Source: Gammaproteobacteria bacterium
GTDB lineage: Bacteria; Pseudomonadota; Gammaproteobacteria; UBA4575
DNA: 64,000 bases
NCBI GenBank assembly: GCA_965203475.1
Contig: OZ241890.1
Location: forward strand, 1,873,448-1,937,447
Reading direction: 5' to 3'
Part shown: positions 7,087-62,439 of the stretch, one piece after another
Layout: every line of letters begins with the position of its first letter
Position numbering within the stretch: the stretch's first letter is position 1
Program-made: the position numbers and the translations under genes
The notes under the pieces: model-generated
Database searches by the model: none
Told to the model about the DNA's origin: nothing
Seen by the model: only the letters and a program-made list of their open reading frames with translations

Positions 7087-7809
7087 CTATTTGCCCCACT
7101 TCATGATGTCGAATGATCGATGGATACCTACATAAGGTTGTGTTTCATCATCATCACCATCAGGTGCTAGCCCTAGCGGATCATTGTCGTAGTCGGTATG
7201 TACAATAGCGGCGGTAACATCAAAGCCTGCTACTTCAAACCCATATCCCGCTTCGATATACTCACCTAACGAATCTTCTGCATCATCACCAAACATTCCG
7301 TAGGTCACATAAACTCTTTTCCAACCACCGGTAATGGCTAAGAAATCATACTCATCACCTTCAACACCTCCATCATCACCAATGAAGTCACCGTTATACT
7401 CTCCAGTTGAATATTCGATATCAAAATTGAAATCATCATTTGACCAACCTGTATAAAAATTCACTTCGTTATATTCCGAATCAAAATTATCAGAATACTG
7501 ATAACTGGTGCCACCAATTCCTAGATAAAATCCATTTAAAAATTCGTGAATGTAGCCAGCATAAATGTCATATTCATTTCCTTGACCCACATCTCCTATC
7601 CAGGTGCCTAAGTAAAAACCGCCAACTTCTAAGTCAAGTCCACCATTTCCAGACGAATCATTTTGGGGAACACCACGAAATATGTATTCTGATAAAATTC
7701 CTGCGTTGCCTGAAAGCGTTGCCTCTACGGCAAATGCATGACTAGTGAACACTGCGATACTGCTTACCAAAAAGCCCGTCATCGCCAAGTGCTGTAATTT
7801 TATATTCAT
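7087..7809 (-). CDS. TorF-family putative outer-membrane porin (TIGR02001-like), first gene of the glnK-amtB operon
   Basis: 240 aa with a signal peptide, an alternating beta-strand pattern and the motif SEYIFRG. It has a GGGAGG SD and, as is common for this family, sits next to amtB. Confidence 0.65.
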   Translation of the reverse strand: MNIKLQHLAMTGFLVSSIAVFTSHAFAVEATLSGNAGILSEYIFRGVPQNDSSGNGGLDLEVGGFYLGTWIGDVGQGNEYDIYAGYIHEFLNGFYLGIGGTSYQYSDNFDSEYNEVNFYTGWSNDDFNFDIEYSTGEYNGDFIGDDGGVEGDEYDFLAITGGWKRVYVTYGMFGDDAEDSLGEYIEAGYGFEVAGFDVTAAIVHTDYDNDPLGLAPDGDDDETQPYVGIHRSFDIMKWGK

Positions 7810-7859
7810 TGATAATCCTCCCTATACATAGGTGTTGTTTATAATTCGCTGTTTCTCTT

Positions 7860-10507: not shown

Positions 10508-12337
10508 ATGAACTTCCCGTCTGCACCGGATCCACATGCGATTTCAGTACTGATTCTTACGATCATCGCATTAATTTTATTTACCCGGGACCGCATTCCC
10601 CTTGAAACATCAAGTTTGCTGGTGATTGCAATACTAGCCGTGGGGTTTGAATTATTTCCTTATGAGTACCGAGGAAAAAATCTACAGTCCATTGAGTTGT
10701 TCTCTGGTTTTGGGCATGAGGCATTGATTGCGGTGTGTGCACTTATGATCGCAGGTCAAGCCTTGGTACGTACGGGTGCGCTTGAGCCAATCGGTCGATC
10801 CTTAGCCAAACTTTGGCGTAAAAATCCTTCCCTGTCTTTGCTGCTTACATTACTCATTGGAGGAGCCTTAAGTGCCTTTATTAATAACACTCCAGTCGTC
10901 GTTTTATTGCTACCTATACTAGTGAGTGTTTCTTTGCGTACTCAACGATCACCTTCTGACGTACTAATGCCCATGGGCTTTGCAACTTTGGTAGGAGGCA
11001 TGTGTACCACCATTGGAACTTCTACAAATTTATTAGTGGTGTCTGTTGCATCCGATTTAGGAGTAGCAAAGTTTTCTATGTTTGACTTTATTCTCCCGGC
11101 GAGTATTGCATCTGTTATCGGAGTAATTTACTTGTGGCTGATTGCACCCAGAATCGTGGCCAAGCGTGAAATTCCTTTAAGCGATTCTTCGCCAAGAGTA
11201 TTTTTAGCTCAATTACATATCCCAGAAAATAGTTCCAGTGTAGGTAAAACACATGCTGAGCTCGTTGAATTAACGCACGGCGCAATGAATGTTGAGCGCA
11301 TTCAACGCGGAGAAAATACCTATCTATCGTTACTTCCTGATGTAGAAATTAAAGCAGGTGATCGATTATTTGTTAGAGATACACCTAAAGAATTAAAAGA
11401 ATATGAAGAAGTACTGCAGGCTACTTTATATTCAAACAATGAGCCCGTAGGTGAGCAAGAATTAGTTTCAACGTCTCAACAACAACTAGCAGAAATTGTT
11501 GTCTCTCAAGGATCTGCCTTAGAAAACACGACTTTATCTCGTATAGGTTTTAGAACTCGCTTTGAGCTAATTCCGCTAGCATTACATCGAGCCGGAAAAG
11601 CGATAGAGAATCTTTATTCTAGTGTGCGCGAAGTGTGGTTGCGAACGGGAGATATATTATTAGTACAAGGAAAGTCAGAAACTATTGCAAATCTAAAAAA
11701 AAGTGGTGATCTGCTGATCTTAGACTCTACTGAAAACTTGCCGCACACTTCAAAAGCCCCTTTAGCACTTTGGATCATGATTGCTATTGTTGGAACGGCC
11801 GCTATTGGTTTACTACCGATTGCCATCAGTGCAGTTTGTGGCGTTTTATTGTTAATCATTACCGGCTGTTTAAATTGGCGTGAAGCCACGCAAGCGTTGA
11901 GTGCTCCCATAATTTTAATTGTAGTTGCAAGCCTTGCTATGGGAGCGGCACTAGTTAAAACCGGAGGGACAGATTATCTCGCAAGTTTATATTTATACTT
12001 TACAGCTGGCGCAAAAGCACCCGTGGTGTTAAGCGGTTTAATATTACTTATGGCTTTACTCACTAACATTGTTTCGAATAATGCAGCAGCGGTCATTGGC
12101 ACACCGGTAGCCGTAAGTATTGCAGATCAATTGGGTCTGCCAGCAGCTCCATTTATTTTAGCAGTACTATTTGGCGCGAATATGAGTTACATCACACCCA
12201 TGGCATATAAAACGAATTTACTGGTAATGAATGCGGGCGGGTATAAGTTTATGGATTTTGTCAAAGTAGGTACGCCATTAACGATCATCATGTGGGCCAG
12301 CTATTCTTGGTTGCTGCCGCTTATCTATAAGCTATAA
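10508..12337 (+). CDS. SLC13/DASS-family anion permease with central TrkA-C domains
   Basis: 609 aa. Two hydrophobic halves flank a soluble region of about 200 aa, which is typical of CitT/SLC13-like permeases with RCK-C domains. Confidence 0.7.
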   Translation: MNFPSAPDPHAISVLILTIIALILFTRDRIPLETSSLLVIAILAVGFELFPYEYRGKNLQSIELFSGFGHEALIAVCALMIAGQALVRTGALEPIGRSLAKLWRKNPSLSLLLTLLIGGALSAFINNTPVVVLLLPILVSVSLRTQRSPSDVLMPMGFATLVGGMCTTIGTSTNLLVVSVASDLGVAKFSMFDFILPASIASVIGVIYLWLIAPRIVAKREIPLSDSSPRVFLAQLHIPENSSSVGKTHAELVELTHGAMNVERIQRGENTYLSLLPDVEIKAGDRLFVRDTPKELKEYEEVLQATLYSNNEPVGEQELVSTSQQQLAEIVVSQGSALENTTLSRIGFRTRFELIPLALHRAGKAIENLYSSVREVWLRTGDILLVQGKSETIANLKKSGDLLILDSTENLPHTSKAPLALWIMIAIVGTAAIGLLPIAISAVCGVLLLIITGCLNWREATQALSAPIILIVVASLAMGAALVKTGGTDYLASLYLYFTAGAKAPVVLSGLILLMALLTNIVSNNAAAVIGTPVAVSIADQLGLPAAPFILAVLFGANMSYITPMAYKTNLLVMNAGGYKFMDFVKVGTPLTIIMWASYSWLLPLIYKL

Positions 12338-27912: not shown

Positions 27913-28662
27913 CTATGCTGAAAGTTTATGGGCACGGTGAATGCAAACTATTCCACCACTCATGTTTAAATAATCGCATTGCTCAAAACCTACATCTTCT
28001 AACATGTTTTGCAATGTTTGTTGATCAGGGTGTTTGCGAATGGATTCGGCTAGATACTGATAACTAGAAGCATCTTTTGCAATGAGCTCACCCATTTTTG
28101 GTAATACATTAAATGAGTAGGTATCGTATATTTTATGTAACCAAGCCTGTGGTTTTGAAAATTCTAAAATGAGTATCTGTCCACCCGGTTTAACCGTTTT
28201 ATAAATACAACGTAATGCGTTTTCTTTATTGGTAAAATTTCGAAGACCAAATGCAAGTGTGACTCGATCAAAACAATTTTCAGGGAATGGCAAATCCTCC
28301 GCCATCGCCTGTACAAATTTAACTTGTTTAAATAAACCTCGATCAATGAGACGTGCTCGCCCTTCTTCTAACATGGCCCCATTAGAATCGCACATGGTAA
28401 TTAAACCTTGTTCATTCAATTTAGGCGCCAAAAGTGCTGTGATATCACCGGTGCCGGCAGCTAAGTCTAAAATTTGAAAATGTGGTCGAATATTTGCAAT
28501 GTGCACAAAATAACGTTTCCAAATGCGATGCATACCGAATGACATGACATCGTTCATCAAATCATAGTTTTGAGCAACCGAGTCAAACACCGCCCCGACT
28601 TTTTCAGTTTTTTCATTCGGGCTGACATCTTCATAGCCAAAATGTGTGGTTTTTTCAGGCAT
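27913..28662 (-). CDS. ubiE: ubiquinone/menaquinone C-methyltransferase
   Basis: 249 aa with the SAM motif LDLAAGTGD and the motifs FGLRN and GG...ILEFS. Confidence 0.95.
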   Translation of the reverse strand: MPEKTTHFGYEDVSPNEKTEKVGAVFDSVAQNYDLMNDVMSFGMHRIWKRYFVHIANIRPHFQILDLAAGTGDITALLAPKLNEQGLITMCDSNGAMLEEGRARLIDRGLFKQVKFVQAMAEDLPFPENCFDRVTLAFGLRNFTNKENALRCIYKTVKPGGQILILEFSKPQAWLHKIYDTYSFNVLPKMGELIAKDASSYQYLAESIRKHPDQQTLQNMLEDVGFEQCDYLNMSGGIVCIHRAHKLSA

Positions 28663-28809
28663 TTACGATCGATGGAATTATTCTTCTAATGCCTACAGTT
28701 TAAACAAAATATCAGGGCATGGGCATTAGAATTTATGCTGCTAGGATTAGTTGATATTTGCTAGAGTTAATTGCATTGAAACCGGTTGTGGGCATTGGAC
28801 ATTATCAAT

Positions 28810-28995
28810 ATGGAATCATTTATCAACATGAATCTACCCTCATTTTTGATGTTGATATTTTTCATCGGTGTCGTGATTTCTATTTGGAAGGCACTAGACC
28901 CGATTCGACAACAAAACCGAAGGCCAAAATATTTTTTAATCACACTAGTTTGTTTTATAGGATTTTTATTTGTTAGTTATTGGGATAAAACTTAA
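28810..28995 (+). CDS. hypothetical 2-TM small membrane protein (first ORF of accessory island 1)
   Basis: The ATG lies directly after the repeat-end-like 13-mer ggacattatcaat. There are two hydrophobic helices. The ORF ends 5 nt before the acetyltransferase ATG. Confidence 0.35.
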   Translation: MESFINMNLPSFLMLIFFIGVVISIWKALDPIRQQNRRPKYFLITLVCFIGFLFVSYWDKT

Positions 28996-29000
28996 AAATT

Positions 29001-29447
29001 ATGACCAAAGTCAAAGTTCTAGGAAAGGATGACTTTAAATCCTTAAACGAGTTGTTAAGATTATATGAAGACGTCTTTGAAATGAAAGACTTTGTTATGC
29101 CTAGTGATAACTATCTTCAATCATTACTAGTAAAGGAAGGGCTTACTTTTTTAGTTGCGATAATTGATGAAAAAATTGTGGGTGGACTAACGGCACATGA
29201 CTTGCCTTCAACTTATTTTGAAGCTAATGAAGTGTATGTTTACGATTTGGCGGTTGCAAAAAAACACCAATACCAGGGCATTGGGAAATTACTTTTAACT
29301 GAGCTTAAAAAGATATGTCATCAAAAAGGTGAGCGTGAATTCTTTTTACAGGCTGATATCAATGATTCACATGCCATTGACTTTTACCGCTCAACCGGTG
29401 GAATTCCGGAAGAAGTAATTCACTTTTCGTATAATACTACTAAGTAG
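29001..29447 (+). CDS. GNAT N-acetyltransferase of the AAC(3)-I (gentamicin 3-N-acetyltransferase) family
   Basis: 148 aa. It aligns by eye along its whole length with AacC1: P.D.YL..LL, VGGL.A..LP, E.Y.YDLAV...H..QGI, QAD..D..A..FY...G, EV.HF. Confidence 0.75.
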   Translation: MTKVKVLGKDDFKSLNELLRLYEDVFEMKDFVMPSDNYLQSLLVKEGLTFLVAIIDEKIVGGLTAHDLPSTYFEANEVYVYDLAVAKKHQYQGIGKLLLTELKKICHQKGEREFFLQADINDSHAIDFYRSTGGIPEEVIHFSYNTTK

Positions 29448-29474
29448 AATAAATTAGGTTGGTACCAATAAACT

Positions 29475-29595
29475 ACAAACATAAATTGTCGGCTTGCGAC
29501 CCTGAGCGCATGGATGCGCGAATAAGAGTTCCATCAAGGATGATGCAGCAGATTAATATTCTTATAATGCCTGCTAACGACCCAAAGCGGACATT
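29475..29595 (+). repeat. structured 121-nt repeat, copy A1 (full element)
   Basis: Positions 29501-29595 are 95/95 identical to 30202-30296. The ends are imperfectly inverted (aattgtcggcttgcgaccc / gacccaaagcggacatt). Internal hairpins are gcgcat-gg-atgcgc and catca-agga-tgatg. Confidence 0.9.
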
Positions 29596-29622
29596 ATAAA
29601 TTCAAATCAATTTCCTCTAAGA

Positions 29623-30117
29623 ATGCTAAAAAAGATTGAACGATCTAATGCTGACAAAATTTTAAGACGATTTGCTAATCGAATTAAACCAATAGGATTT
29701 ATCAGGACGAAAACAACATTCTTTGTTCGAGATACTGATTTAGTTGCAGAATTTATTCATGTGCATAAATATACTTTTGGACCATACTTCCGCATACATA
29801 CATGTATAAGAGTTCTAAATGATGCGAGAGACTTTATTGCCTTAACTGGCCCAATTGAGAGTGAATTTAAAACAAAGACATATAAATTTGAATTTGATGA
29901 ATCAAAAGAGTCTGTGGAAAATTGTGCTGAGGAAATGGCTAATTTTGTAGAAAATGAATCTGTTCCTTGGTTTAAACGTTGGGAAAATACGAAGTTATTG
30001 CTTGATGATGACTCTCCATTAAATGATCAAGATAAACAGTATTTAACTGATGCGATGCAAGGAAATGTAATAAAAAAATACGTAGAGCAATCAAGAGCAT
30101 TACTGAAACTTCAATGA
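29623..30117 (+). CDS. hypothetical protein (pattern reminiscent of DUF4304)
   Basis: 164-aa ORF lying between repeat copies A1 and A2. Confidence 0.5.
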   Translation: MLKKIERSNADKILRRFANRIKPIGFIRTKTTFFVRDTDLVAEFIHVHKYTFGPYFRIHTCIRVLNDARDFIALTGPIESEFKTKTYKFEFDESKESVENCAEEMANFVENESVPWFKRWENTKLLLDDDSPLNDQDKQYLTDAMQGNVIKKYVEQSRALLKLQ

Positions 30118-30175
30118 TCGCTATTGGCTGAAAGGAGACTTAATTGAGGTTTAAAGAGGTTGGATTCAAAAATTT

Positions 30176-30296
30176 ACAAACTTAAAACGTCAGCTTTCGA
30201 TCCTGAGCGCATGGATGCGCGAATAAGAGTTCCATCAAGGATGATGCAGCAGATTAATATTCTTATAATGCCTGCTAACGACCCAAAGCGGACATT
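30176..30296 (+). repeat. structured 121-nt repeat, copy A2 (full element)
   Basis: See A1. The 5' 26 nt have diverged (acaaac.taaa..gtc.gctt.cga.cc is conserved). The 3' end lies 4 nt before the next ATG. Confidence 0.9.
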
Positions 30297-30300
30297 TTGA

Positions 30301-30672
30301 ATGTTAGACATCTTTTCAAAACCTGTAATCGCATTAATTTTAGTCGCAATAATTTTCATTTTGCTTTTTGGTAAGTATTGGCGAGTACCTATTGATCATG
30401 CGCATTGGAATAAAAATACGAAGCGCGCTACTTACCTCACAATTTTAATAATTCTAACAGGTGTGTTTTTAACTGATATAGATGCAATAAGATCATCAAT
30501 TTACTGTATTGGAGCATTGTCACTATTACTTTATCCATGGTTTAGATGGGATACACCAAGAAGGTATTTTCATGAACTTGCGCCAATAGAATATAATTTA
30601 GTATTTGGTTGGGCTGGGATAATAATTTGTTTATCTTGGGTTATTTTTCGGCTCTACACTGATAATTTTTAG
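30301..30672 (+). CDS. hypothetical membrane protein (4 TM)
   Basis: 123-aa hydrophobic ORF lying between repeat copies A2 and A3. Confidence 0.45.
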   Translation: MLDIFSKPVIALILVAIIFILLFGKYWRVPIDHAHWNKNTKRATYLTILIILTGVFLTDIDAIRSSIYCIGALSLLLYPWFRWDTPRRYFHELAPIEYNLVFGWAGIIICLSWVIFRLYTDNF

Positions 30673-30704
30673 CAAGTATTTCTAGTACAAGAATGGCCAC
30701 TTCT

Positions 30705-30813
30705 GGCCGAAAGTCGACGTTTTAAATTCTTCGAACTTTAACCGGTTGCATCGTCCCTGATGGAACTCTTATTCGCATATCCCTATGCTCACTATTGGCC
30801 GAAAGCAGACATT
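30705..30813 (-). repeat. repeat copy A3: two partial, inverted pieces of the A element
   Basis: 30705-30725 is approximately the reverse complement of the A2 5' end. 30759-30813 is approximately the reverse complement of the A1 left arm (gatggaactcttattcgc is exact), and contains the hairpin gcata-tccc-tatgc. Confidence 0.75.
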
Positions 30814-30831
30814 AGGAATGTAAGCTGTCTA

Positions 30832-31194
30832 CTAATTCTGACTGGGCTCATAGCCCGCTTCTTTCAAACGCTCTTGATATTTTTTCCAATTTGCTTCTTG
30901 ATTAATGCCTAAATCATACAAATGATCCCAGGAAAAAATGCCGGAATCATGATTATCATCAAAGACTAATTGCACGGCGTAGTTCCCCACAGGATTAATG
31001 GCGGTGATATTTACATCTTCCTTGCCTACTTGTAGTACTTCTTGTCCAGGGCCATGGCCTTGTACTTCGGCCGAAGGAGAATGAGTGCGTAAATATTCAC
31101 AAGACAACTCAAAGTGCTGACCATCATCAAATTCAATTTCAAGAAATCTTGATTTTTGGTGTAGTTCAATTTTTGTAGGAACAGCTTTTGCCAA
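30832..31194 (-). CDS. DUF971 (gamma-butyrobetaine hydroxylase-like N-terminal domain) protein
   Basis: 120 aa. The motifs L.I.F.DG....L..EYLR..SPSAE and I.NY A..L.F.D.HDSGI(F/Y)SW..LY are typical of DUF971. Confidence 0.7.
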   Translation of the reverse strand: MAKAVPTKIELHQKSRFLEIEFDDGQHFELSCEYLRTHSPSAEVQGHGPGQEVLQVGKEDVNITAINPVGNYAVQLVFDDNHDSGIFSWDHLYDLGINQEANWKKYQERLKEAGYEPSQN

Positions 31195-33185: not shown

Positions 33186-34178
33186 TTATGCTTCGTTATT
33201 GTCTTCAGAATTTTCGTCTATGGACAAATGCTCATCTATTTTGTCACTTGACGATGCATCATGTTTTCTAGCACGTGGATGCGCACGATCATACACCTGG
33301 GCCAAATGTTGAAAATCGAGATGGGTATAGATTTGTGTGGTACTGATGTCAGCGTGCCCCAGCATTTCTTGCACCGCACGCAAATCTCCACTGGATTCCA
33401 GTAAATGACTGGCAAAAGAATGGCGCAACATATGCGGATGTACATGTTTATCTAGCCCCTGTTCTCTTCCCATTTGTGCCATGCGTTGTTGCACGGCACG
33501 GGGTGATAATCGATTTCCGCGATTATTTACAAATACAGCCTGTTCATTTTCGGCCACGATGGTCGGTCTTGCATCTAACCATCTGCGCAATGCCTTGCAT
33601 GCCGTAGTACCAATCGGTAGATAACGAGTTTTGCTACCTTTACCTGTAACCTGCACTTGGGCATTAGTCAGATCGACAGTATCCACATTCAAGTTAACAA
33701 GTTCTGCTAAACGCAGGCCTGATGAATACATCAACTCCATCATAGCGTGATCACGCAGCTTTAATGGGCTTTGTGGACCTTCGGTGAGCAAGCGATTTAC
33801 TTCATCCACATCCAGCAGATGCGGAAGTTTTTTCTCAGCACTGGGAGCACGAACATCAGCCACGGGATTATGTTCCACTAAATGCTCACGCATTAAGAAA
33901 TTGTAAAAACCTCGAATGGCGCTTAAAGCGCGTTGCAAACTACGTGCCGATACTCCACGACGTCGGCGTGAGCCTGCAAAGTTTCGCACATGCAAACTAT
34001 CAACTTCACAACAATCAGTTACGTTGATAGCGTTAATAAATTCAATAAATTGCTGAATATCGCGCTGATAATTTTCAATCGTAGCGAAGGAATATCTACG
34101 TTCGTCTTTTAAATAACGTAAATAATTTTGAAGGAGTTCTTCTGTTGTTGCCGGACTGGTAACTATCGCCATAGGCAA
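33186..34178 (-). CDS. xerC: tyrosine recombinase XerC
   Basis: 330 aa with the motifs R..ARSLSA.R.FY, HMLRHSFA.HLL and LGH..I.TTQIYTH. It sits in the conserved dapF-DUF484-xerC context and has an acidic C-terminal extension. Confidence 0.9.
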   Translation of the reverse strand: MPMAIVTSPATTEELLQNYLRYLKDERRYSFATIENYQRDIQQFIEFINAINVTDCCEVDSLHVRNFAGSRRRRGVSARSLQRALSAIRGFYNFLMREHLVEHNPVADVRAPSAEKKLPHLLDVDEVNRLLTEGPQSPLKLRDHAMMELMYSSGLRLAELVNLNVDTVDLTNAQVQVTGKGSKTRYLPIGTTACKALRRWLDARPTIVAENEQAVFVNNRGNRLSPRAVQQRMAQMGREQGLDKHVHPHMLRHSFASHLLESSGDLRAVQEMLGHADISTTQIYTHLDFQHLAQVYDRAHPRARKHDASSSDKIDEHLSIDENSEDNNEA

Positions 34179-58584: not shown

Positions 58585-58706
58585 AATATGGACGAAGTGC
58601 ATGGTTGTGAGCATAGGGAAAAGCGAATATGAGTCGAATCATGAATGATTCGAACAGATTAATCTTTTCTTTATCGAATGTCCGCTAACGATCCAAAGCG
58701 GACATT
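58585..58706 (+). repeat. repeat copy A4 (diverged full element)
   Basis: It aligns with A1 across gagc.cat.gg...gcgaata.gagt..atca.g.atgat...cagattaat...gctaacga.ccaaagcggacatt. It has a local hairpin gaatgtccgc/gcggacattc, and the internal hairpin is replaced by gaatcat-ga-atgattc. Confidence 0.75.
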
Positions 58707-58735: not shown

Positions 58736-59248
58736 TTAATTAATCAAATGTTGATATGAGAACAAATGATTCGTAGTCGTTAATGGTGCATGACATGCTC
58801 GACACTCATTTAAATCTTTCTCAGCCAAAGAACCATCAGGTTTGAAAGCTGCAAAATCCCAATCTTCATTTTTTAAACCATCAGGTAAATTATCGCTGAA
58901 CCCTTTTTCTCGTTGCATTACAGCAATCAATACAAATTTATCTCTGACTCTTCGATTTAAATTACTAGTTATAATTTTGCCTTCTTTATCTTTTTTAGCT
59001 TTATATACTTCAGCTACCAAAACAGAACCATATGGTAGTTTTCCATCTTCACCAGGACCTTGCATAGCTATGTCATTCGCAAATATACGGATAGTCTGAT
59101 CAGGATTCATCAAACGGTCATTACTTACATAGTTAGTAAACGTAGATCTATAATCCACCGGTAGTTGAATATTGTTGTTCCCACTAATTGCCAATGAAAT
59201 TGTAAATGTATAAAAAATTGCAATATAACTAAGTAATCTAATCATCAC
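58736..59248 (-). CDS. cytochrome P460 / c'-beta family periplasmic heme protein
   Basis: 170 aa with a signal peptide and a single C-terminal CRACH. The W.FA.F..DG...C..CH context is typical of the P460 family. Confidence 0.65.
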   Translation of the reverse strand: MMIRLLSYIAIFYTFTISLAISGNNNIQLPVDYRSTFTNYVSNDRLMNPDQTIRIFANDIAMQGPGEDGKLPYGSVLVAEVYKAKKDKEGKIITSNLNRRVRDKFVLIAVMQREKGFSDNLPDGLKNEDWDFAAFKPDGSLAEKDLNECRACHAPLTTTNHLFSYQHLIN

Positions 59249-60040: not shown

Positions 60041-60133
60041 AAATTTAATTTCAGAATTGTTAACAAATGACCGATAGTGGAAATTAAGATCATCTAACTT
60101 TAATCTGATACAATATCCTTGTTGTAACTCTTA

Positions 60134-60230
60134 TTCGCGCGGTCGCTCCCGACTTCCTGTCTCCCGCGACACTTGTGCGTCCATGCACATCGTCCTGTGC
60201 TCAGGTCGAAAGCAGACATTTTAAAAGAAA
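60134..60230 (-). repeat. repeat copy A5a (inverted left arm of the A element with an insertion of about 35 nt)
   Basis: gtaactcttattcgcgc...gtgcgtccatgcaca...ctcaggtcgaaagcagacatt is approximately the reverse complement of A1 29484-29533. The hairpin is kept as tgtgc-gtccat-gcaca. Confidence 0.7.
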
Positions 60231-60250
60231 AGAATAAACTGCTCGAATCG

Positions 60251-60277
60251 GCAGAAAATTGTTCCTGCATTTTCTGC
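60251..60277 (-). terminator. hairpin downstream of recG
   Basis: Arms gcagaaaat / attttctgc (9 bp) with a 9-nt loop. On the minus strand the T-rich tract begins only after about 12 nt. Confidence 0.35.
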
Positions 60278-60302
60278 ACTTCCCACTTCCATGTAGGTCG
60301 TC

Positions 60303-60325
60303 CATGATTCGACTCATATTCGCTT
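60303..60325 (-). repeat. repeat fragment A5b
   Basis: A 23-nt exact reverse complement of A4 positions 58621-58643 (aagcgaatatgagtcgaatcatg). Confidence 0.8.
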
Positions 60326-60336
60326 AACCCTTACCC

Positions 60337-62439
60337 TCATACCTGCCCAAACTCTATAGATTTTCCTAACCATCGTTCAATAATTGCATCTACTCGTTGT
60401 AGATCATCGTTAAGTAAAGACTTTGCAGTTTGTTGCACTAAGGGAATTAAATCTTGATCACGCATAATGTTGGCAATGCGCAATTGCAACATGCCGGTTT
60501 GGCGTGTACCTAACACTTCTCCAGGCCCACGAATTTCTAAATCCACCCGTGCAATCTTGAAACCATCATTCGTGTTACGCATGGTGTCGATACGTAGTTT
60601 GGCATTTTCGGTAAGTGGTGGATCAAACACTAATACACACGAACTTTCTTCACTGCCTCGCCCTACGCGACCCCGCAATTGGTGCAACTGTGCCAACCCC
60701 AAACGTTCAGCATTTTCGATAATCATTAAACTCGCATTTGGAACATCTACGCCTACTTCAATTACCGTCGTTGCCACTAACAAATCAATTTTTCGGTTCG
60801 AAAACTGCTGCATTACAGCATCTTTTTCTTTACCTTTCATACGGCCATGTACCAGGCCCACTTTCACACCACGTAATAACTGGCTTAATTCACGATAAAC
60901 ATCTTCTGCTGCCTGACATTGCATCGCTTCTGACTCTTCTACCAAGGTGCACACCCAATAGGCCTGTTGTCCATTTCGACAAGCTTTGGCTACACGCTCT
61001 ACTACTTCATTTCTGCGTTCCATAGGAATGGCAATGGTTGTAATGGGTTTGCGCCCGGGAGGCAATTCATCCACCACAGAATAATCAAGATCCGCATAGG
61101 CTGTCATGGCCAAGGTTCTTGGAATAGGTGTTGCCGTCATAATAAGTTGGTGCGGGTGAAATTCATTTTGAATACCTTTTTCACGTAAGGCTAAACGTTG
61201 ATGCACACCAAAACGATGTTGTTCATCGATTACCACTAAAGCTAAATTCTTAAATTCGACACCTTGTTGAAACAAAGCATGGGTGCCAACGATAGCATTC
61301 GCGGTGCCAGTTGCAATGAGCGCTTTCATTTCATTACTTTTGCTTGCCGTAAGCTTGCCGGACAACCAGGCTAGACGAATACCATAGGGTTCTAACCAAT
61401 TCGAAAAATTCCGCAAATGTTGTTCGGCTAAAATTTCAGTAGGTGCCATGACAACAGCCTGATAACCGGCTTCAATCACTTGCATACAAGCGGCAATGGC
61501 AATTAACGTTTTCCCGCTACCTACATCACCTTGCACCAGTCGCAACATGGGATATTCATTTTCTAAATCTTCAAAAATCGTTTGAATTACTCTTTTCTGT
61601 GCACCCGTTAAGTCAAATGCCAAATCATTACCAAGTTGATTAAATAATTTTCCTTCGACTTGTACCTCTACTGCTTGATGTTTTTGTGCTTGCAACCGAA
61701 GTTTGGATAAACTTAATTGTTGAGCTAATAATTCTTCAAAGGCTAAACGACGCTGCATGGCATGTTTGCCTTCCGCCAACGCTTCGGTATCAGCTTCAGG
61801 AGGTGGGCGATGAACAAACTTGAGCGCATCTTTAATAGACACGCGTTGCCCATCAATCTCGGGCGGCATGGGAAGCAAATCCAACTCAGGTATGTTCTCA
61901 CTGTCTACCCACTTCAATGCTTGGGAAGTCAAACGTCGTAAGCTGAGTTGATGCAATCCTTCAGTTGTGGCGTAAATAGGTGTGAGGTGATCTTCAACTT
62001 TGGGAACAGCATCTTTATCTTGTATTTCATATTCAGGATGCACCATTTCAGGCCCTTTAATACCTTGGCGAATTTCACCAAAACATCGAATGGAAACACC
62101 ACGTGCCAGACTTTCACGCTGACTATTATTAAAGTAAAAAAAACGTAACAACACACGGCCGGTTCCATCTTCCACACTTACCAATAGCATACGACGTTTT
62201 CGGTATACCACCTCACTATGTTCCACAGTGCCTATCACTACACATTCATCACCAGGACGTAATGCCGCAACGGAACGTATACGTGTGCGATCCTGATAGC
62301 GAATTGGTAAATGAAAAAGCAAATCCTGCAAGGTGAAAATCTGCAGGCGTTGCAAACGCTCAGCAACTTTCGGCCCAACACCTTTTAAGGTTTCAACCGA
62401 GGGAAAAGCTTTATTTTGCAAAGAAACAGTAGGAACCAC
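60337..62439 (-). CDS. recG: ATP-dependent DNA helicase RecG
   Basis: 700 aa with a wedge domain and SF2 helicase motifs GDVGSGKT, DEQHRFG and TATPIPRT. Confidence 0.95.
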   Translation of the reverse strand: MVPTVSLQNKAFPSVETLKGVGPKVAERLQRLQIFTLQDLLFHLPIRYQDRTRIRSVAALRPGDECVVIGTVEHSEVVYRKRRMLLVSVEDGTGRVLLRFFYFNNSQRESLARGVSIRCFGEIRQGIKGPEMVHPEYEIQDKDAVPKVEDHLTPIYATTEGLHQLSLRRLTSQALKWVDSENIPELDLLPMPPEIDGQRVSIKDALKFVHRPPPEADTEALAEGKHAMQRRLAFEELLAQQLSLSKLRLQAQKHQAVEVQVEGKLFNQLGNDLAFDLTGAQKRVIQTIFEDLENEYPMLRLVQGDVGSGKTLIAIAACMQVIEAGYQAVVMAPTEILAEQHLRNFSNWLEPYGIRLAWLSGKLTASKSNEMKALIATGTANAIVGTHALFQQGVEFKNLALVVIDEQHRFGVHQRLALREKGIQNEFHPHQLIMTATPIPRTLAMTAYADLDYSVVDELPPGRKPITTIAIPMERRNEVVERVAKACRNGQQAYWVCTLVEESEAMQCQAAEDVYRELSQLLRGVKVGLVHGRMKGKEKDAVMQQFSNRKIDLLVATTVIEVGVDVPNASLMIIENAERLGLAQLHQLRGRVGRGSEESSCVLVFDPPLTENAKLRIDTMRNTNDGFKIARVDLEIRGPGEVLGTRQTGMLQLRIANIMRDQDLIPLVQQTAKSLLNDDLQRVDAIIERWLGKSIEFGQV

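Follow-up and report, generated by a model that had tools for sequence, protein, structure and literature searches.

Dispersed mosaic repeats, probably akin to repetitive extragenic palindromes, accumulate in a variable gene slot of uncultured Gammaproteobacteria

The DNA analysed here, which we call the window, comprises 64,000 nt of contig OZ241890.1 (positions 1,873,448-1,937,447) in assembly GCA_965203475.1 of a Gammaproteobacteria bacterium (UBA4575), and our subject is a structured repeat that follows small genes in an island between ubiE and a DUF971 gene. Coordinates are window positions unless prefixed by one of the labels L001-L054, which denote loci from other genomes; the sequence base consists of these 64 kb of the source genome and relatives' loci of at most 17 kb each. 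GC content is 39.6% in the window and 31-36% in the island. An earlier sequence-only reading had found four open reading frames (ORFs) on one strand between ubiE and DUF971, had grouped them with three copies of the repeat (A1, A2 and A3) into three ORF-plus-repeat units, and had proposed an integron cassette array or a cluster of attC sites lacking an integron integrase (CALIN). The four ORFs are confirmed, and encode a protein with two transmembrane (TM) segments, a GNAT acetyltransferase, a 164-aa product (ORF164) and a predicted membrane protein (ORF123). The repeats that close the three units are real as well, but A3 is inverted and the two-TM ORF does not belong to a variable unit. The features of the window are listed in Table 1.

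Copies were scored with R1, a covariance model of the 59-nt core of the repeat. With filters off, R1 found exactly five copies in the window, plus one degenerate fragment at the recG stop codon; E-values of the repeat were 1e-21 to 1e-22, and when the window was shuffled 100 times, a 39-nt piece of the repeat did not occur once. R1 also gave a very weak match at 12157-12219 on the plus strand (11.4 bits, E=0.56), which is probably noise. The 95 bp reported as identical between A1 and A2 are indeed direct repeats (29501-29595 = 30202-30296), set within a homology of about 146 nt at 90% identity (29456-29601, 30157-30302). Because this perfect run stands beside left parts that are only ~70% identical, the pattern points to a recent local duplication of A1 and A2 or to gene conversion between these copies, which lie 700 nt apart. 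The next ATG follows 27 nt past A1 and 4 nt past A2, as had been stated. A3, which had been listed as a third copy of the repeat, runs opposite to A1 and A2 as their reverse complement, and its orientation is sense to the DUF971-hslUV transcript. Nor is the repeat confined to the island, for two further copies (A4 and A5) lie elsewhere in the window. A4 stands after DUF3050, the last gene of a DUF1348-TetR-DUF3050 operon that is convergent with a cytochrome P460 gene.

Table 1. Genes and repeat features of the window. Bit scores and E-values of the repeats refer to the core model R1.
Feature	Position	Strand	Remarks
ubiE	27913-28662	-	Ubie_methyltran, E=3e-84
Weak remnant of A1/A2 spacer and P start, TATTCTTCTAATGCCT	28678-28693	+	divergent ubiE/two-TM promoter region
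61-aa two-TM protein gene	28810-28995	+	divergent from ubiE; not a variable cassette
GNAT acetyltransferase gene	29001-29447	+	AAC(3)-I-like, under family cut-off
A1 left part: AGGTTGG-type spacer (29456-29484) and left half-palindrome (29485-29501)	29456-29501	+	
A1 core C, stem-loops with TGGA and AGGA loops	29502-29560	+	74.8 bits, E=2e-21
A1 right palindrome P, AATGCCTGCTAACGACCCAAAGCGGACATT	29566-29595	+	
ORF164, rare orphan family	29623-30117	+	homologues in small-ORF arrays of other genomes
Degenerate solo P over ORF164 stop codon (AATGA...)	30113-30142	-	same junction in L048
A2 left part: spacer (30157-30185) and left half-palindrome (30186-30202)	30157-30202	+	
A2 core C	30203-30261	+	74.8 bits
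A2 right palindrome P	30267-30296	+	4 nt ahead of ORF123 ATG
ORF123, predicted membrane protein	30301-30672	+	hardly any homologues
A3, inverted: left half-P (30813-30792), core (30792-30734), degenerate right P (30720-30692)	30692-30813	-	76.3 bits
DUF971 / GBBH-like_N gene	30832-31194	-	conserved right border of variable slot
XerC tyrosine recombinase gene	33186-34178	-	syntenic in relatives
A4: core (58607-58665) and P (58677-58706)	58607-58706	+	63.6 bits
A5, long variant downstream of recG, left half-P (60220-60204)	60096-60220	-	52.4 bits
Degenerate partial core abutting recG stop codon	60285-60340	-	17.8 bits, E=0.005

As judged from an alignment of the five window copies with copies of other genomes, the repeat unit is a mosaic of two modules, P and C. 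P is a 30-nt palindrome with the consensus AATGTCCGCT-TWCGGCCAAT-AGCGGACATT (N10 middle) and forms the right end of the unit, while the left end often consists of the first 17-22 nt of P. C is a 59-nt core between half-P and P that carries two short stem-loops, in the order GTGA, hairpin 1 (GC-N-N-A / NGGA / T-N-N-GC), GAATAWGAGTT, hairpin 2 (e.g. GCAACA / TGGA / TGTTGC) and TCAGATTAAAGTT. The stems of C are variable and its loops fixed (CA-N-GGA-N-G); in P the opposite holds and it is the stem that is conserved. Both core hairpins are supported by real covariation. Compensatory changes occurred in 6 of the 12 stem pairs of C among 26 sequences, and the 38 doubly changed cells compare with 12.1 +/- 3.1 in column shuffles, none of which (0/500) reached 38. 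When the partners were slid by 1-3 columns, only 1-3 doubly changed cells were left, and paired cells fell from 88.5% in the C stems to 13-41% in these controls. When folded as single sequences, all copies formed the two core hairpins as well as that of P, and both core hairpins of A1 are present in its minimum free energy fold. In a long variant, common to A5 and L003, hairpin 1 encloses ~50 extra nt that form GGA-rich hairpins, among them a third hairpin, CATGGATG.

Other short sequences accompany the two modules. A motif AGGTTGG followed by an A-rich stretch recurs between palindromes and between the core and the right palindrome (29456-29484, 30157-30185 and L048 5934-5962, with longer spacers in L001, L008, L033 and L041), and this recurrence suggests that the mosaic has at least a third module. 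A core subfamily (L047 7685-7705, L043 1216-1235, L012 7612-7630) is extended upstream by a stretch that looks like part of hairpin 1 in duplicate (e.g. GTAAGCGCAGGGAG ahead of GTGAGCGCAAGG), which adds another GGG/GGA motif. In the promoter region shared by ubiE and the two-TM gene, the possible remnant at 28678-28693 agrees with A1/A2 at 15 of 16 bases, a score reached by 0-1 of 300 shuffles and marginal given the multiple comparisons. A 13-mer at 28797-28809 had been described as a solo repeat end marking the left edge of the island, but it shares just GGACATT with the repeat end, a 7-mer present six times in the window, and neither a match of the P profile at these positions nor local alignment lent it support.

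Two other functions were considered for the modules and rejected. The repeat is open in one frame, giving 46-aa ORFs at 29459-29599 and 30160-30300, yet a small-peptide coding role was discarded in view of the covarying stems, and also because many copies have GAATAAG where this frame has its internal ATG (GAATATG). P does not fit an intrinsic terminator either, having a loop of 10-12 nt and a weak T-run, and a consensus scan for terminators flagged the degenerate P of A3 alone.

We then turn to the distribution of the family. A first scan with a 23-nt core pattern, using one genome per species, found 44 stretches where ~17 chance matches were expected, and yielded ~26 true copies in ~11 metagenome-assembled genomes (MAGs) labelled Thiotrichales, Gammaproteobacteria or Pseudomonadota. 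R1 raised this to 41 copies in 238 kb of MAG loci, ~15 of which are independent of the search pattern because they do not match it. Three further copies were found in L048 and L053, loci that had been reached via protein homologues and not via the repeat, which brings the number beyond the window to 44 in ~285 kb altogether. The repeat family is present in at least a dozen related uncultured genomes. No Rfam family matched the repeats, either with the whole window at the gathering threshold or with both repeat regions at E up to 10, and a plasmid collection held no match to A1; the viral collection gave a single candidate match to the core pattern. We are dealing, then, with a previously undescribed repeat family, conserved across genera of uncultured Gammaproteobacteria.

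The palindrome is more widespread than the core. A profile of P found 65 loci, 25 of them not adjoining a core, and several of these formed inverted doublets with a spacing of 40-80 nt; pairs of P in inverted arrangement are present in L009, L033, L041, L045 and L048. Among 60 P loci (E up to 0.01, 336 kb), none lay within an ORF, the nearest gene 3' end was at a median distance of 16.5 nt, and eight overlapped the stop codon. The flanks of 25 well-defined P copies showed no target-site duplication. As for the cores, 18 lie in convergent, 21 in co-directional and 5 in divergent gaps, against a background of 56, 248 and 46 in the same sequences. Twelve of 33 cores start at most 5 nt from the stop of the sense upstream gene, and the left junction TA|GTGAGC, seen in 14 of 49 copies, often itself supplies the TAG or TGA stop. 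The family is dispersed, occurs in both orientations, is strictly extragenic and is concentrated at gene 3' ends. It is found in ordinary intergenic regions, such as those after recG, after the DUF3050 gene and at many sites in other genomes, a distribution that the sequence-only reading had itself named as speaking against cassettes. In loci chosen by protein (L045-L048, L052 and L053; 84 kb) there were 4 cores and ~23 P, which by extrapolation would mean ~10^2 cores in each genome, with P several times more numerous.

The surroundings of individual copies differ as well. One orthologous gene is followed in three genomes by a core that is sense (L012 5737-5795), inverted (gene, P, antisense core; L022 3718-3776) or decayed (L002 ~7650-7830), and therefore the elements turn over and flip at this site. 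Cores can also form gene-less tandem clusters: at L023 6381-6915, three like-oriented cores lie in an 850-nt non-coding stretch without ORFs between them.

To place the island in context, we compared it with the corresponding loci of three relatives (L045, L046 and L047), which were reached via ubiE homologues of 71-78% identity. The order dapF-DUF484-xerC-hslV-hslU-DUF971-[X]-ubiE-ubiJ-ubiB-uvrD-dctP is kept in all three. X comprises nine genes in L045, five in L046 and one in L047, none of them common to the window, so the earlier suggestion that this slot is variable is borne out by 1, 5 or 9 unrelated genes amid conserved synteny. In Pseudomonas aeruginosa the ubiE-hslU interval presumably holds the polyhydroxyalkanoate locus, as that reading also stated. 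The slot of L045 has six P, located between most of its genes, that of L047 has two P and a core just downstream of its two-TM gene, and that of L046 has none; the conserved flanks of the slot are without P elements. In the window, three of the four gaps of the island carry a unit, as compared with 2 of ~57 elsewhere (Fisher p = 0.001). Between DUF971 and ubiE there is therefore a variable slot in which repeats and small low-GC accessory genes collect.

The two-TM gene is not among these accessory genes. By tblastn it adjoins ubiE in L047 (7705-7878, 65.5% identity) and in L045 (7648-7806, 54%), divergent from ubiE in both and uncalled in the relatives' annotations. A core or P follows it directly in these two loci; in the window the GNAT gene intervenes and is then followed by A1. 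A promoter-like site precedes the two-TM gene at 28776-28805. On this comparison it is a conserved core gene of at least three genomes and lies outside the first "module", into which it had been placed as part of a cassette unit.

Taken together, these observations make it very probable that the repeats are a lineage-wide, mosaic extragenic family resembling repetitive extragenic palindromes (REPs), bacterial interspersed mosaic elements (BIMEs) and REP doublets forming hairpins (REPINs), which has piled up in a variable slot, and that they are not part of an integron. The fallback offered by the sequence-only reading, elements like miniature inverted-repeat transposable elements (MITEs) that punctuate an insertion hotspot, was essentially right, given that the variable slot is enriched in repeat modules; in the stricter sense of a DDE-type MITE, defined by terminal inverted repeats and target-site duplication, the elements do not qualify, as the 25 P flanks are without duplication. 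Like the REPs, BIMEs and REPINs of E. coli and Pseudomonas, the repeats are short imperfect palindromes, strictly extragenic, present in many copies and of lineage-specific sequence, they cluster where genes end and in convergent gaps, and they leave no target-site duplication. They also form inverted doublets and half-P/C/P mosaics, and BIMEs too carry motifs between their palindromes, one of which is an integration host factor (IHF) site. Unlike REPs and BIMEs, P lacks the 5' GTAG, its loop is long (10-12 nt) and conserved, and no REP-associated tyrosine transposase (RAYT) was present in the sequence searched. The internal module C also sets the family apart from BIMEs, being a covarying hairpin pair with conserved GGA loops; to our knowledge, no such pair has been described for BIMEs.

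Other families of modular repeats offer partial parallels. The Neisseria intergenic mosaic elements (NIMEs) with dRS3, the Correia elements and the pneumococcal BOX elements are likewise modular intergenic mosaics in variable regions ("minimal mobile element" sites), co-transcribed with their neighbours and with stable stem-loops, but their sequences are unrelated to P and C. Correia elements further have TA duplications, promoters and IHF sites, and dRS3 is a phage integrase target, none of which was seen for P/C. Palindrome-associated transposable elements (PATEs) derived from IS200/IS605 share the hairpins near both ends and the lack of target duplication, and the recurrent TA|GTGAGC left junction could reflect insertion 3' of a short target, as in PATEs; however, no tnpA/tnpB partner was seen, the junction is inconstant and many copies start within half-P.

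A mechanism can be outlined for such a family. P would spread as a REP or REPIN, and the lack of target duplication suggests that it may do so by an HUH/RAYT-type or a recombinational mechanism. Where units are transcribed from the upstream gene, they would supply 3' stem-loops by which the transcript could be stabilised or terminated. Closely similar copies at a distance of 700 nt would provide short homologies favouring local duplication, gene conversion and the gain or loss of small genes. The route of mobilisation we infer, because no transposase was found and P is without a 5' GTAG.

Several observations weigh against the REP/BIME-like interpretation and call for caution. E. coli RayT found no RAYT by tblastn in the window or in 54 other loci, although less than 3% of the genome was searched and RAYTs are single-copy and divergent. 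Classical REPs have a conserved 5' GT[AG]G tetranucleotide next to the hairpin; P begins with AATG(T/A)C and has neither GTAG nor GTGG at its foot. The thermodynamic z-score of the whole unit is unremarkable (-0.3 to -0.8 for A1-A3), and A4 alone stands out (-4.5). In co-directional gaps, cores were sense in 15 cases and antisense in 4-6 (p = 0.02-0.08 depending on ORF calling), a bias that is suggestive at most. The slot of L046 is variable though it has neither P nor C, and therefore gene turnover in the slot does not depend on the repeats. Finally, the census draws on the 64 kb of the source genome and the short loci described above, and copies per genome are extrapolated from these. The case is also a caution for annotation, as a REP/BIME-like build-up in a variable slot can mimic arrays of "ORF plus structured repeat", and orientation together with genome-wide distribution quickly tell the two apart.

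The REP/BIME-like interpretation leaves room for a function of the core. Tentatively, C could be a CsrA/RsmA-binding RNA, located in 3' untranslated regions (UTRs) or in processed 3' fragments, whose two GGA hairpins would bind one CsrA dimer, and its dispersed copies would put many transcripts under Csr control or act jointly as a sponge. We regard this as possible though not likely, and it would complement the repeat-family explanation, not exclude it. The conservation of loops while stems covary is the pattern expected of sequence-specific loop recognition. The consensus for CsrA obtained by systematic evolution of ligands by exponential enrichment (SELEX) is RUACARGGAUGU, with ACA and GGA invariant and GGA in a hairpin loop (PMC4347634). 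Both loops of C read (C/U)A-N-GGA-N-G (e.g. GCACAUGGAUGUGC and GCAACAUGGAUGUUGC) and agree with 9-10 of the 12 positions of that consensus, though the conservation of the hairpin 2 loop is partly imposed by the 23-nt search pattern. Fourteen copies found by the model only keep GGA in hairpin 1 in 14 of 14 and in hairpin 2 in 12 of 14. The two GGA of the core are ~26 nt apart, and a spacing of this order is within reach of one CsrA dimer. In the long variant of A5 and L003 there is a third hairpin, CAUGGAUG, with more GGA motifs, and the composite downstream of recG has 10 GGA in 261 nt where ~2.7 are expected. This composite, a degenerate core and A5 in tandem (60080-60340, minus strand), is the second-densest GGA stretch on the minus strand of the window.

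The position of the cores, preferentially downstream of genes and mostly sense, would also suit this function, but the bias in orientation is weak, 5' UTRs are where CsrA usually acts, and the counts of G-U and A-C stem pairs (15 vs 9) do not clearly favour the sense strand. Diverged copies after a bioD-like gene keep their GGA loops on different stems in two genomes. These copies (L016 4994-5052 and L048 6605-6664) stand after orthologous bioD-like (AAA_26) genes, whose products share 60-78% identity; the two copies differ completely in stems and linker but retain both GGA loops, which could mean either long retention under selection or repeated hits at the same site. No Rfam Csr/Rsm family matched the repeats, even with E up to 10, and tblastn found no csrA in the window or the fetched loci, which are a small part of each genome. 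Nor did we find a precedent in the literature for a dispersed CsrA-binding repeat. By eye, P does not fit the TGTAAG-N6-CTTACA pattern, and a GacA-box-like promoter upstream of the cores was therefore rejected. With the sponge RNAs CsrB/C and RsmX/Y/Z the core shares repeated hairpins with A-N-GGA loops at a spacing that suits the CsrA dimer, and the long variant carries 4-6 GGA motifs in ~150 nt. It differs from them in having no Rfam similarity and two hairpins per standard unit, and in being present as many dispersed copies after ORFs, not as a few dedicated, promoter-bearing genes.

Combining the two ideas, the C-P unit may be conceived as a mobile CsrA/RsmA-binding module, in which the REP-like P would spread pairs of high-affinity CsrA hairpins to about a hundred gene 3' ends across a clade of uncultured Gammaproteobacteria; this composite is a little more doubtful than the binding of CsrA as such. 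If true, transcripts would be tied into the Csr network, or the protein titrated, by dispersed repeats in place of dedicated CsrB/Rsm genes. Should the hairpins bind CsrA, the family would be a mobile repeat able to rewire post-transcriptional regulation.

A further alternative holds that P is the boundary of mobile gene modules, that is, of a non-integron cassette system in which small genes would travel with a flanking P, through RecA recombination between P copies or an unknown recombinase, and accumulate in arrays. ORF164 provides its best evidence. The family is rare, with 10 homologues in 5.8 billion clusters, and in the window as well as in L048 the TGA stop of the gene lies inside the first bases of a P (AATGA...), with another P upstream. 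The L048 homologue is 66% identical and stands at a different locus (PhoD ... bioD-like/TetR/MMPL), in a set of seven small co-directional ORFs of which nearly every one is followed by a P. The P-rich slot of L045 is similar in this respect, and the enrichment of P and C in the variable slot fits as well. Something of the cassette idea thus survives, in that the shared ORF164 junction hints that gene and P can be moved as one; it hints likewise that palindromes travel with small accessory genes and may aid their movement.

In Microbulbifer sp. VAAC004 (CP174314.1), the ORF164 homologue belongs to a run of small ORFs, at least 12 in number, co-directional and unrelated to one another (L049 5300-12492), among them DUF6882, DUF4240, NADAR, glyoxalase, GNAT, an rve fragment and others, and L050 was likewise noted. 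An attC-like hairpin (GCATAAC...GTTATGT; L049 6487-6538) begins at the stop of the ORF164 homologue, and many intergenic regions of L049 open with ..TAAC at the stop codon; there is no intI in the 6 kb upstream of the array. From these features, the run is probably a chromosomal integron cassette array, which would place ORF164 in a pool of genes that move as cassettes. ORF123 of the window is also rare (5 matches among 1.84 billion representatives).

Even so, we consider P as a module boundary improbable. P and C are also found after housekeeping genes (recG), as gene-less doublets and as tandem cores, their orientation is mixed, no recombinase is linked to them and the slot of L046 turns over without P. 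In addition, a REP located 0-20 nt from a stop codon would hitchhike with the gene under any mechanism of transfer. The GNAT gene gives no sign of a module either: its homologues at 71-73% identity stand in unrelated chromosomal contexts and have no common module.

The same gene had been one reason to think of an integron, since it was read as AAC(3)-I-like. The resemblance is real, with 109.8 bits on the NCBIfam model AAC_3_I (NF033083), but it falls under the cut-off of 200; identity to AAC(3)-Ia, Ic and Ih is ~35%, and the closest solved relative is the environmental enzyme meta-AAC0020 (5F46, E=1.6e-32). By these scores the GNAT is a relative of the AAC(3)-I family and not a called member. 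We scanned for attC sites by folding, looking for single hairpins that measure 50-145 nt and have AAC...GTT at their base, a procedure calibrated on one positive control, the class 1 integron L054, where it recovered the genuine attC of aac(6')-Ib3 (L054 5000-5071). No candidate was found on either strand of 28600-30900. Two earlier scans, one for strict RYYYAAC/GTTRRRY and one with 7/7 + 8/8 pairing, had found nothing anywhere and are uninformative, because they miss even the cassette-like array of Microbulbifer. The absence of intI, already remarked upon, holds: the only tyrosine recombinase near the island (33186-34178) passes the cut-off of the XerC model TIGR02224 (376.8 against 335), whereas its score of 151 is well under the 265 required by the integron integrase model TIGR02249.

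The island does share some traits with integron arrays, including sedentary chromosomal ones such as those with the Vibrio cholerae repeats (VCRs). A structured repeat of ~120 nt follows small, unrelated, co-directional ORFs, neighbouring copies are near-identical, as they are in chromosomal arrays, the lead gene resembles AAC(3)-I, a family whose true members are integron cassettes (in L054, aac(3)-Ic stands beside intI1), and the ORF164 homologue is cassette-like in Microbulbifer. However, the unit has no R''/R' (AAC/GTT) boundaries and is not a single bulged hairpin but a multi-hairpin mosaic, divisible into modules that occur independently. Nor do the sites show a single orientation with one per cassette, as A3 is reversed and an extra inverted P is present at 30113-30142. 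Copies lie outside arrays, after housekeeping genes and at non-array sites in the window and in other genomes, and the two-TM ORF is a conserved core gene. The proposal of an integron cassette array or CALIN is refuted because there is no attC-type site, XerC is the only recombinase nearby, A3 is inverted and the family is dispersed. Its last version, a decayed array whose attC sites have diverged past recognition, is so improbable, with no AAC...GTT hairpin on either strand while the control attC was recovered, that we set it aside.

Two genes near the repeats deserve a brief remark. The cytochrome P460 gene that converges with the DUF1348-TetR-DUF3050 operon (58736-59248, minus strand) and a gene for an SBP56 (methanethiol oxidase-like) protein in the slot of L045 hint at a nitrogen and sulfur lifestyle of this uncultured clade.

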